From contig OZ024746.1 of assembly GCA_964016885.1 (NCBI GenBank), forward strand, positions 3,224,001 to 3,288,000: DNA of 64,000 bases, written 5' to 3'. This stretch comes from Eledone cirrhosa (lineage: Eukaryota). Positions 18,048 through 53,332 of this stretch are shown here, piece by piece; position 1 is the first letter of the stretch, and each line of letters starts with the position of its first letter. Made by a program: the position numbers and the translations under genes. The notes below the pieces were generated by a model. The model made no database searches. It was not told the DNA's origin and saw only the letters and a list, made by a program, of their open reading frames with translations.

Positions 18048-19697
18048 GAATGCCCTTTACAAAATAATTGCCTTGATAAGAATTTAGTATATAAATGCAC
18101 CGTTAAAACAAATAATAATATTACCTAGAACTACATAGGTGCAACTTTAAACTTCTTTTTTCCAATCATAAACATTCTTTCTCTAATCCACATAAAAGAT
18201 TTTCTACTTCGTTATCACAATTAATATGGTATTTAAAAGAGAAAAATATAAAATACTCAATTTCTTGGGTTAAACTTAGAAACTCTGAATCATATCGGAA
18301 TGCTTCCATCTCACCAATCTGCCATCTTTGCAATTTGGAAACTCTATTAATAATTACTAATTATGGTAATTTAATTAATTTAAAAAATGAGTTTTTTGCA
18401 ACTTGCCTTCATAAAACGGGAAAATCATTTTAGCATCATTTAAATTTAGAAAAAAACACTGAATGAGTGAAAAAATATCGACTTTTATTAATAATTTTTG
18501 AAATGCTACCATTGTTATTATATATAATGTTTGACCTTACCTTATAAAATTGCATATTGGCTCTTTTATATGGTGAGTTAATCTCATGATTGACTAAATA
18601 CCTTTAGTTCGGTTTTAGAATCGTCTTTGTATAACTTGAATTTTCTAAATTTGTGATGTGAAACACCTCCTGGCTTTCAAAGCATTTAGCTAATTTAAAA
18701 GATCAGATATGTTGTACGGAGCTCATTTGTTTACATTATCGTATATAATTTTCGTTTTTATCCAAATGGATTAATAATGTATATTTAACATAATTTATAC
18801 TGTTGCATATAGTAAGATTAGGTTGATTCGAAATAATAATACTTTCAAGAGTATATATAACTATTAATTAATCCTATATGTAATTGACAACTATTGATTT
18901 AAACCGTTTGTAATGTTAATAATTCTAAACATTGTATAAAATGCATATACAGATGGTGATATGTGATTAAGTTATGATAAATATACTCATACATATTTAC
19001 TATATTTGTAAACTTCATTTGTAGGTTAAATGTTTCTGATTTTGAATTTTGTAACAAAAAATTGAAAATATTTCATATTGTTTAATTTTGATTTAATATA
19101 TTAGTATAATACAATAGATAGTAATAATTTTAACGGTATTTAATTGGTCGCTTCTACCTGACTTAATATTTAAAAACAACTGTTACGCATCACGTATCTT
19201 TCTTTCTTTCCCGTTGCAGTTATGTATTCCATCCTATCTTTTATCTTCATCTTTTTTCTTTCCCTCCTCTCTTCTATTTAGCACTCTCTCTCTCTCTCTC
19301 TCTGTTCTGCTTCTTCTCTAACATGAATATTTAAATATTTTAACATTTTTGTACTTAATGTGCTTATTTATTTATTTCTTCTATATTTTCTCCCCCCCCC
19401 CCCCTCTTGATACTTATATCTCGCCACATCCCTCTCTTCATCATATTTAGTTTGTCATGTCATTCCTTCTTGTGGTATATAAACATAATTTTGTTGTAAT
19501 AAATCACTGCCAAGACTGAAACTAAACCATCAAGACAGTTGAGGTATGTCGTACATCAATTTATGTATTTTATCTGATGAGGACGTACTGAAAAAACAGC
19601 ACAGTACCTCTGAAATATATATAATAAAACATATATTTTGATTATGTGAAAGTCTTCATTTATTAATATTTTGAATAATATATATATATATATATAA
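18048..19697 (+). mobile_element. 5'-truncated Penelope-like retroelement: decayed GIY-YIG endonuclease, long AT-rich 3' region, terminal hammerhead, (TA)n
   Basis: Manual translation gives CPLQNNCLDKNLVYKCTVKT...NYIG (GIY-YIG), then TSLSQLIWYLKEKNIKYSISWVKL...ICHLCNLETLLII...LINLKNEFFATCLHK. Homologous to ORF 43507..43821. Confidence 0.85.
19555..19642 (+). ncRNA. minimal type I hammerhead ribozyme (Penelope-like element terminus)
   Basis: CTGATGA 19574-19580; stem II GGACGTACTG/CAGTACCTCT; GAAA 19612-19615; short stem III with palindromic TATATA; AUA triplet (cut predicted after 19623); stem I ttttat/ataaaa extending to atcaa/ttgat. Confidence 0.85.
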
Positions 19698-19871
19698 ACT
19701 CTTATTGAGTCCTCTCTGGATTATGCTCTTTGTATATGTTATTACTAGTTGGCTGGAACATGTAAGAGTGTTTATATATATATATATATATATATATATA
19801 TATATATATATATATTTATAGTAGAAAATGTATGTATAAAGATAGTTTTGCTATCTGTTCTTCTCTTTCAG

Positions 19872-20064
19872 ATTCTGTATTCACACCTTTCTTTAATGAT
19901 GCATGGATTCACCGTGAAGACACAGAAAATTTTTTCATCCGCAACCTTGAGCCACCATCGCCGCCCTTGTCGGAATCAAACCCAAACATCGACAAAAGGC
20001 CCCCAGCCCCACTGCCCAAGCCAAATGATCTGTATCACACAACCAAGAGCAGTACAAGCAATAG
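19872..20064 (+). CDS. ARHGAP35: p190 RhoGAP-like exon 9 (end of pG2, Pro-rich linker)
   Basis: ctctttcag acceptor and gtgcgt donor. HSVFTPFFNDAW...EPPSPPLSESNPNIDKRPPAPLPKP is in frame with exon 8. Confidence 0.88.
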
Positions 20065-52119: not shown

Positions 52120-52490
52120 CATCTGTGTTGCATCTTGAGATCAGTCCCCATGTTGATTGAAGAAACACCCGTGGACATGCCCACAAAGTCAGAAAACAGC
52201 ACAGTTCCCATGACTTTCGGAAACATTTTTTCACGCTCAGAGTTGCTGAAGCATGGAACAAACTACCTGCATCGGTTGTTAGCTGTCGAGACACTGCATC
52301 CTTTAAAACCTCCATGCTTACAGAAATTCGCCAACACTACACCTAATATTCCCCCTCCATACACATACACACATGTATATCATGACTCATACACTATTCA
52401 CTTCCCTGACATTTGTGTATTATTCTATGTACTATACATGCACCTTTGACGAGTTGTAGTGCACCTGAGCACTTTACACAATAATTTCAT
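52120..52490 (+). mobile_element. CR1/L2-like LINE 3' end (its tail recurs inverted at ~10530-10570 and ~38020-38062)
   Basis: TRGHAHKVRKQHSSHDFRKHFFTLRVAEAWNKLPASVV..FKT matches the CR1-type TRGH..FFS.RV...WN.LP C-terminus. Confidence 0.8.
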
Positions 52491-53108
52491 TATATTATAT
52501 ATCATTATATATATTATAATGGCACAATTTATTTCTTCCAATAACAAGCAGTCCAGCATTTGTTTCCTTACCAATTTAGCTTAAGCCAACACCTAATATT
52601 TATGTTCCATACAGCAACACATTTTATTATTTTCTTTATTCTTTTACTCCTTCCCTTCATATGTTTCACTAGCACCTCCTTTTGTTACCAAAGTAACAAT
52701 AAATACATCTTGTAGTACGGGGGGGGGGGGGGGGGTTAAGGGGCTACTTTGTTGTCTGTTATCAAGGAAAAGTATTTCTTTCTTTCAAGATAGATTGAGC
52801 AGTATACGTTAATTTGCTTCTCCGTTTAATGACTCATTTATTTTAACTTTTCTATGGCTTATTTCTTTTCTTTATATTAGCTTTTCCAGATACTCTCTCT
52901 CTCCCCATCTACAGGCGTACTTTGCCCCATTTTCTCAACTATTATTCATAGCAATCAACTATTATGATAATTTCCATTGGTACACCCACTTTTCAAATTT
53001 TCCTAATACTTCATTGCTCAACCACTTTACACGCACACACACATATTTTTATATATATATATATATATATATATATATATATATATATATATATATATAT
53101 ATATATAT

Positions 53109-53332
53109 ATAATATAAGATCAAAAGATGGTTAAAGGAGTTCCATGTATTTTATTATGCGCATAATGTTGATTTAAAACTGCACTATCCACAAGTGTTTT
53201 TTAGCCTTCATATCATGTTCTCCTGTTTTATCTGATGAAAACACAAATATTATTGCATGATGATGTTTGTTTTTGAAATGCGCATAATAAAATACATGGA
53301 ACTCCTTTAACCATCTTTTGATCTTATATTAT
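53109..53332. repeat. 55-bp perfect inverted repeat enclosing a hammerhead
   Basis: 53109-53163 is the exact reverse complement of 53278-53332. Confidence 0.95.
53224..53294 (+). ncRNA. minimal type I hammerhead ribozyme with palindromic TGCGCA stem III
   Basis: Stem I tgttttat/ataaaata; CTGATGA 53232-53238; long stem II ACAAATATTATT/GATGATGTTTGT; GAAA 53275-53278; TGCGCA-TA (cut predicted after 53286). Confidence 0.82.

Follow-up and report, generated by a model that had tools for sequence, protein, structure and literature searches.

Four type I hammerhead ribozymes lie on the forward strand of a 64,000-nt stretch of the genome of the octopus Eledone cirrhosa (GCA_964016885.1, contig OZ024746.1, positions 3,224,001 to 3,288,000; hereafter the window, in whose coordinates positions are given), within introns of the gene for p190RhoGAP. 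Very probably each forms the 3' end of a Hydra-type Penelope-like element (PLE), the four elements coming from different families and having inserted at (TA)n. The ribozymes likely serve the RNA cycle of the elements themselves and are predicted to be mostly uncut passengers of the host transcript. Family membership, copy number, two-armed head-to-head insertions with a short and a long 3' end, co-variation of the stems and pile-ups of 5' ends are all observed in the genome.

Four hammerhead ribozymes in the window

Both strands of the window were searched with a descriptor consisting of CUGANGA, stem II, GAAA, a paired N15.2/N16.2, UH and a stem I of at least 4 bp, which returned four exact-core matches, all on the + strand, with cores at 19574, 40503, 44886 and 53232 (sites 1-4; Table 1). 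The same descriptor gave a mean of 0.03 matches and a maximum of 2 in 200 block-wise dinucleotide shuffles and never reached four, so that the four intact-core hammerheads claimed at these positions by a first-pass annotation of this DNA stand (4 versus 0.03 per shuffled window). The bare pattern CTGATGA..GAAA is not significant by itself, with 5 matches in the window and 5 reached in 8 of 100 shuffles; its fifth match, at 49794, fails the structural descriptor and was rejected as chance. An Rfam search of the window yielded 48 matches at E <= 1, all below the gathering scores and mostly to simple repeats; the hammerhead was absent from them, and the Rfam hammerhead model was not matched. This miss does not count against PLE variants, the discovery of which in 2014 required a descriptor of its own (PMC4209133).

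All four ribozymes possess the CUGANGA, GAAA and UH core, and their helices I and II follow the type I order. Stem I is A/U-rich and 5-6 bp in length, stem II is long, and in helix III a single pair closes six bases. In the standard hammerhead numbering, in which a G12A change is inactivating, the extra base of dimeric PLE hammerheads between positions 9 and 10.1 is absent, and a G10.1-C11.1 pair is found only in the copy of family A2. Dimeric PLE hammerheads are reportedly the subject of Lunse et al. 2017. The helix III loops listed earlier are those of sites 1-3, and the loop of site 4, TGCGCA, is mismatched with them.

Carrier families and their protein

The four sites represent four families (A1, B, A2 and C for sites 1-4, respectively), each with 1,500-6,000 or more members. 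One tight pattern has 38,292 exact matches in the 3.0-Gb genome (0 for the control), with 19,195 forward and 19,097 reverse, strand counts that pool all matches, most arms occurring in both orientations. Relatives with an open reading frame (ORF) were found for A1/A2, B and C, and the single ORF comprises a reverse transcriptase (RT), an Asn-rich linker and a C-terminal endonuclease-like domain, the proteins of the families being 52% identical. Among 16 fetched family-C ORFs of at least 700 codons, nine copies have an ORF of 820-821 codons with all motifs; DKT, CxCx5C and the absence of GxKF/Y are common to 16/16 of these long ORFs, and CxxC/CxH is found in 13/16. The same motifs diagnostic of the Hydra clade are found in the A-family ORFs, while the RWK motif retains RW with a third residue that is R in A2 and T or I in C. 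The RT motif YRDD is present, the predicted model (pLDDT 78) has TERT (3du5) as its top fold match (E 3.7e-8), and the single ORF is predicted to encode a telomerase-like RT. At the C-terminus there are a Y..Y.G motif, a conserved K/R/H and a beta-beta-alpha order, with no profile or fold match for that domain alone. A protein search with the ORF returned 18 relatives at 29-38%, and Pfam and PDB sequence searches with it gave no match. For instance, an intact 800-aa Hydra-type ORF (L177:1292-3691) has no Pfam match below E 0.2, so that domain-based annotation would miss such elements.

The families also display a preference for insertion at (TA)n, partial tandems, an inverted 5'-truncated arm and a tail at one end. 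Judged by sequence, the carriers are Hydra-clade PLEs with a hammerhead at the 3' end, i.e., new families of a known kind of carrier, in agreement with the earlier suggestion of diverged, ribozyme-tipped Penelope-like ends with a dimer-type helix III. Family C is young, because three separate insertions differ at only 0-1 bases and a few gaps over 600-740 nt. A literature search found no description of these families or of a start-site versus cut-site footprint, although Repbase, Dfam, subscription papers and bioRxiv supplements may hold them.

Two neighboring observations concern other loci. L086 (G000:C2:391565000-391574999) consists of three tandem A1 units of 3.7-3.8 kb with G12A in all three hammerheads, and is probably a DNA-level duplication of a dead copy. 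Beside family-C copies, L167:2197-4077 (-) encodes a 627-aa Penelope-like ORF with a Cys-rich linker and a YIG motif that looks Neptune-like by eye.

Co-variation of stem II and helix III

Across 200 copies, stem II pairs 1-3 and 5-7 are maintained with both sides changed between families; the copies are non-independent, and the evidence is the contrast between families. Stem II co-variation, the absence of which had been set beforehand by the first-pass annotation as a point against its reading, is thus found across families, and the catalytic core is constant across the families with changed stems. Pair 4 is mismatched in 198/200 copies, nearly always with a 5' C (C.C, C.A or C.U), and this fixed mismatch may be a tertiary contact or a protein site. 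Helix III, unstable and palindromic, pairs with itself without mismatch in 192/200 copies, part of the 200 loci having been retrieved with a pattern that fixes TRYRYA. The step from TATATA to TGCGCA takes four changes, all of which keep the palindrome.

Anatomy of the insertions

Family-C coordinates below count the first base after the cut as 0. Family-C insertions consist of two head-to-head arms in (TA)n, of which one ends near +46 and the other at +136 in 39/40 two-arm loci, and 89 of 114 family-C arms have a divergent partner that covers the cut. Short copies are head-to-head palindromes, and tandems are full units of 3.7-3.9 kb; in tandem copies +136 joins the 5' UTR directly, giving a unit of 3,735 nt. 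The short head-to-tail units with a hammerhead in each that define non-LTR retrozymes were not found. Within the window, the earlier claim that each element ends about 45-55 nt past the cut is right for sites 1 and 2 (about 50-57 nt) and wrong for sites 3 and 4, where a tail extends to about +140 and is followed by (TA)n. With 97-99% identity to other copies, the site 4 insertion is recent. The A2 element at 41933-45068, the ORF remnant of which is on the minus strand, has site 3 as its inverted arm, and no inverted arm of the A1 element at site 1 was found in 15.9-19.9 kb.

The tails of A1, A2, B and C have in common a hairpin-like ACTC ... GAGTGCT just past the short end, e.g., at 53336-53365. 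Conserved while the remaining tail differs, this motif is a candidate RT signal.

Two arms of opposite orientation could arise by priming from both nicked target strands or by fold-back self-priming on an antisense template. The latter was proposed as a model for rotifer Penelope elements, according to PMC3846280, and would suit the commonness of palindromic junctions, but the arms are often not nested (in L127 the long-tail arm extends to -675 and the short arm to -2235). In addition, 8 of 66 loci have a tail-only long arm that stops at +20..+54, the expected place of a second primer, as twin priming on one RNA would give, and site 2 has the same form. A related protein is described as nicking and extending both strands (PMC11167929), and we consider fold-back self-priming improbable. 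With priming from both target strands, the overlapping arms in most loci would need two RNAs or strand displacement.

5' ends and junction footprints

A strong truncation peak had been expected at the cut, and none was found: 4 of 114 family-C arms start at -3..+5, while 37 of 114 start at -121..-128. Genome-wide, this youngest family has 1,922 symmetric junctions at -124, against 88 in the region of the cut and 13 at a control site, the last being an undercount (nearer 23) because the control 13-mer carries a variant in 43% of the depth. About 12 of 50 listed -124 junctions have a non-template G just before -124, as copying of a cap would leave. Pile-ups are also found in family B at -126..-134 (10/29, one of 30 loci being excluded because its 3' core is lacking) and in family A2 at -102/-103 (6/30), each at an initiator-like YCAYWA. 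The B and A2 counts come from a repeated analysis, inverted arms and (TA)n having obscured the 5' ends in an earlier one. Because 5' ends pile up at the start site and seldom at the cut, most short insertions were likely copied from uncut RNA.

Fifty of the cut-region junctions were listed. In 13 of these the two arms lie no more than 1 nt from the cut, 18 are compatible with annealing at the helix III palindrome, 15 match an A-run and 4 have one arm at the cut. These junctions may be, at most, a faint sign of real cleavage.

Copies that bear the ORF behave differently from the short ones. Thirty of 214 were examined (about 26 independent insertions). No copy stops at -121..-128; 20 continue beyond -130, 5 end between -98 and -40, and the other 5 end downstream of the cut, 2 of these at exactly one unit from +136. 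In 19/20 cases an upstream repeat resembles its own downstream copy more closely than it does the median of the others, and its own copy is strictly the nearest in 10/20 (3 ties, 7 not).

A proposed replication cycle

Based on these footprints, we propose the following cycle. Each terminal repeat would carry a promoter 100-130 nt upstream of the cut, a well supported step in keeping with the initiator described in the terminal repeat of rotifer elements (PMC3846280). Lone-repeat RNA, with one hammerhead, would remain mostly uncut and give rise to short palindromic insertions that end at the capped 5' end, which is likewise well supported. In repeat-ORF-repeat RNA, two hammerheads could pair via helix III, probably with the element protein, and be cut and ligated to a 3.7-kb circle, copying of which more than once round would regenerate the upstream repeat; we give this step about an even chance. 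A circle from two hammerheads was proposed in PMC4209133. Both nicked target strands would prime, at about +46 and +136, another well supported step, and the two internal priming sites reported for a lizard element fit these ends (PMC11167929). Finally, and again with good support, the arms in read-through host RNA would zip into long duplexes that hide the ribozyme.

The circle is the step with a serious competitor. ORF copies might instead come from linear multi-unit tandem transcripts or template jumps, in which case the hammerhead need never cut and might act as a dimer link or a protein-binding fold. Multi-unit tandems do exist (L086, L211/L212), 0 of 30 ORF-start copies end at the cut, own-copy identity is not decisive, and catalytic mutants are reported to be without effect on insertion in vitro (PMC11167929). 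The linear route predicts, however, stops at the start site of the last-but-one repeat, and none of the 20 copies that reach that site stop there. It also leaves aside that the catalytic core stayed constant though stems changed and proteins are 52% identical, and that about 23 junctions (13/50 scaled to 88) have both arms at the cut versus 2/13 equally tight ones in the control. Although it falls somewhat short of probable, this route is a substantial possibility.

Several points weigh against the cycle proposed here. The cleavage, transcript ends and circles of the cycle are predictions from genomic footprints, and the footprints have weaknesses of their own: the control junctions are undercounted, the commonest -124 junction overlaps a short palindrome, so that microhomology may inflate that class, only the 13 of 50 cut-region junctions mentioned above are tight on both arms while 18 fit annealing, and the ORF-start sample amounts to the roughly 26 independent insertions given above. 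Cut RNA may be degraded and hence under-counted among insertions. Linear donors can explain the circle step, since the nearest repeat is the own copy in only 10/20 and multi-unit tandems exist. Published activities may not carry over, because helix III here is 1 bp plus 6 nt and there is no extra base after A9. Lastly, sites 1 and 2 are without a masking arm.

The host gene and its copies

Exons in the window match octopus p190RhoGAP at 97-99%, and a tblastn exon map of 264 kb around the window places exons on the + strand from -43.9 kb to +112.1 kb in window coordinates. This map confirms that all four hammerheads sit on the sense strand of p190RhoGAP and that the gene extends past 36 kb, both as the first-pass annotation had it. 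A Pfam RhoGAP profile search of the genome did not show the GAP exons of this gene, the exon map coming from tblastn instead. Site 1 is about 250 nt upstream of a 3' splice site (exon from 19872) and 20.9 kb from site 2, in a different intron with several exons between.

The sense-strand cluster had been presented as special, and this is unsupported. The descriptor finds eight copies in the gene: those of sites 1-4 and one with a changed core at -19695 in sense, and antisense copies at -19895 (intact), 42019 (G12A) and 95066 (intact). Intact copies are thus 4 sense versus 2 antisense (p=0.69), and the genome-wide strands are nearly equal. The expected number of matches per 64 kb is 0.82 against four observed (Poisson p=0.01); the window was chosen for this excess and insertions cluster, and the cluster needs no special explanation, the elements having likely entered these introns by chance.

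Predicted folding and cleavage of the host intron

Heterodimers that form in cis and cut the host intron had also been proposed. For frequent cutting of nascent p190RhoGAP RNA by pairing of sense copies, sites 2 and 3 are the only serious candidates: they share an intron and a loop, are 4,372 nt apart, near the 3.7-kb unit of the element, and have intact cores, and site 3 has the canonical G10.1-C11.1 and a favorable local fold (stem I 0.83-0.99). Their predicted helix III duplex reaches, however, only -2.2 kcal/mol, and the other mixed duplexes are also weak (-3.2 for 1x2 and 1x3, -1.6 for 4x2 and 4x3, +1.7 for 4x1), against -10.5 for 4x4. The hammerhead-ready fold of site 2 is rare (2e-4 alone, 2e-9 in context), that of site 1, like that of site 2, being predicted at <=2e-4 alone. 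A 679-nt antisense arm that is transcribed first is predicted to pair with site 3 (arm duplex -158 kcal/mol per 100 nt). Site 4, mismatched with the others, should likewise be sequestered, its upstream arm being predicted to base-pair with it over the cut (-91.8 kcal/mol) and its hammerhead fold having a probability of 2e-18 in context. With site 1 in another intron and no strand skew in the gene, the proposal of cis heterodimers lacks support, and cutting of the host intron by these copies is, on the predicted folds, quite unlikely.

Published data on relatives can be set beside these predictions. Lone minimal hammerheads are described as not cleaving and dimers as cleaving weakly (PMC4209133), and the lizard Penelope hammerhead is reported to cleave only with its own protein, uncut RNA being the main insertion substrate (PMC11167929). 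Masking would be general, because most family-C arms have a divergent partner over the cut (89/114). Some cost to the host is possible, since retrozymes are given as somewhat depleted from Xenopus introns (bioRxiv 10.64898/2026.07.22.740005).

Host co-option of the ribozymes to tune splicing or expression of p190RhoGAP could be read into their intronic, sense-strand positions and the proximity of site 1 to a 3' splice site, and an intronic ribozyme that affects its host gene is reported for Cpeb3 (PMC10919898). Each ribozyme is, however, one ordinary member among the 1,500-6,000 or more of its family, and site 4 is a recent insertion (97-99% to others), which leaves co-option extremely improbable.

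At site 4, one of four runs (X4) departs from the others at seven positions within 53285-53308, in each case by A>G or T>C and in 4-15% of the depth, versus under 0.06% in run X1. The changes look like A-to-I editing on both hairpin strands, with alleles or a subfamily as alternatives; they are a hint only and were not counted as evidence.

Table 1. Hammerheads, carrier elements and host introns, in window coordinates
Feature	Position	Strand	Remarks
Hammerhead 1 (family A1)	19568..19629	+	stem I 6 bp; stem II closed by G.U (pair 1); loop TATATA; predicted cut after N17 at 19623
Hammerhead 2 (family B)	40497..40558	+	stem II closed by A-U (pair 1); loop TATGTA; predicted cut after N17 at 40552
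Hammerhead 3 (family A2)	44880..44930	+	stem II closed by G-C (pair 1); loop TATGTA; predicted cut after N17 at 44924
Hammerhead 4 (family C)	53226..53292	+	stem II closed by A-U (pair 1); loop TGCGCA; predicted cut after N17 at 53286
Fifth hammerhead copy	41975..42025	-	core 42019, G12 to A; partner of site 3; overlooked in the first-pass annotation
p190RhoGAP intron with site 1	15970..19871	+	tblastn exon map, GT/AG ends
p190RhoGAP intron with sites 2-4	36363..64000	+	28.8 kb long; next exon at window +65207
5'-truncated A1 Hydra-type element	18044..19680	+	carries hammerhead 1; 80% to L087 over 1.77 kb; (TA)n end
Putative C-terminal endonuclease of A1 element	18045..18430	+	broken remnant; tblastn with L177 ORF, E 2e-18
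Solo family-B terminal repeat, short-end arm	40479..40602	+	holds hammerhead 2
Tail-only inverted arm of same family-B insertion	40399..40482	-	93-96% to family-B tails in L025, L026; hammerhead uncovered
A2 element, main arm	41933..44309	-	broken remnants of linker and putative endonuclease at 43507-44290
A2 element, inverted long-tail arm	44310..45068	+	96% inverted repeat of 41933-42610 over 679 nt; antisense to own ORF
Solo family-C terminal repeat, long-tail arm	53165..53422	+	starts at family 5'-end hot spot (-122); 97-99% to other copies
Inverted short arm at hammerhead 4	53104..53163	-	-9 to about +50; covers helix III, cut site and 3' strand of stem I

Other features of the window include a recent-looking long interspersed nuclear element (LINE) at 56715-59794 (-), in which two long frames of 626 and 410 aa encode endonuclease and RT (Pfam matches), LINE remnants at 38183-39127 (+) and 41290-41707 that include a PHD-like finger close to the C-terminus of the RT, a DDE_Tnp_1_7 (piggyBac-like) transposase remnant in a RhoGAP intron at 24163-25086 (+), and a tandem duplication of a unit of about 260 bp at 63058-63633 with a long hairpin at 63258-63385.

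Significance and comparison with known systems

The local finding is ordinary, and the value lies in genome-wide footprints, through which the role of the ribozyme in the replication of Penelope elements becomes directly testable. A young family whose ORFs are intact and whose near-identical insertions number in the thousands offers countable footprints at -124, at the cut (0), at about +46 and at +136, and a unit of 3,735 nt. The role of the hammerhead in Penelope elements and the regeneration of the upstream repeat are called open in PMC8557442 and PMC2377424. Masking by arms is a possible reason why tens of thousands of intact intronic ribozymes are tolerated, and the paired arms are a candidate source of the unusually high double-stranded RNA (dsRNA) potential and the hyper-editing reported in octopus (PMC5625713). 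Tentatively, and with somewhat less than even confidence, the genome might be read as a fossil record of dimer-gated ribozyme action. Lone-repeat RNAs, capped and uncut, would have spread as thousands of palindromic mini-elements, while repeat-ORF-repeat RNAs would have been cut by a cis dimer and circularized, regenerating the upstream repeat. Helix III may hold two RNAs for priming of both strands, and hairpins would mask intronic ribozymes and may be a major source of dsRNA for octopus ADARs.

The closest known relatives are the elements of the Hydra clade, including Hydra-1_Obim of Octopus bimaculoides (Craig et al. 2021, PMC8557442), which share with the families of E. cirrhosa the C-terminal endonuclease (putative in the latter), DKT, the CxCx5C linker, CxxC and CxH around E/N and the lack of GxKF/Y, as well as (TA)n targets, a hammerhead near the 3' end, an inverted 5'-truncated arm and a tail at one end; the N-terminus is also similar to that of Hydra-1_Obim by eye. 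The families here differ from the listed Hydra elements, mostly <3 kb, in having a 3.7-kb unit with a 3' UTR of 1.1-1.5 kb, and from the clade in having RW followed by R or T rather than K and a tail of about 90 nt rather than 30-40 nt. The hammerhead of Hydra-1_oBim (PMC8557442 supplement) is a different one, whereas those here have a 6-nt palindromic loop, a long stem II and a fixed C.N mismatch; moreover, there are tens of thousands of copies here, and intact ORFs.

The minimal PLE hammerheads (Cervera and de la Pena 2014, PMC4209133) are, as described there, also type I with an unstable palindromic helix III and a long helix II, and they too fall into numerous sequence families within one genome, for the most part as single copies that derive from truncated elements, with opposite-strand pairs 100-700 bp apart. 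The hammerheads here depart from them in the lack of the extra base between 9 and 10.1, in G10.1-C11.1 being restricted to A2, in a helix III of 1 bp and a 6-nt loop, which would give an 8-bp dimer helix III, and in being more numerous than the 2,000-9,000 copies that the paper gives for schistosome, coelacanth and Xenopus. The Poseidon element PAc of Anolis (Frangieh et al. 2024, PMC11167929) is reported to have two internal start sites of reverse transcription that bound the tail, AT-rich targets and uncut RNA as the main template, all of which resemble the families here. The latter differ in belonging to the Hydra clade, in resting on genomic evidence and in the place of the hammerhead, which precedes the first likely start codon by about 215 nt instead of overlapping it. 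The short non-coding type I repeats of animal non-LTR retrozymes are likewise tied to PLE terminal repeats, and dimer cleavage and circles are reported for those of axolotl (PMC7229834; bioRxiv 10.64898/2026.07.22.740005); in contrast to these head-to-tail arrays of a small unit, the short copies of E. cirrhosa form palindromes of about 450 bp within (TA)n, their arms placed head to head.

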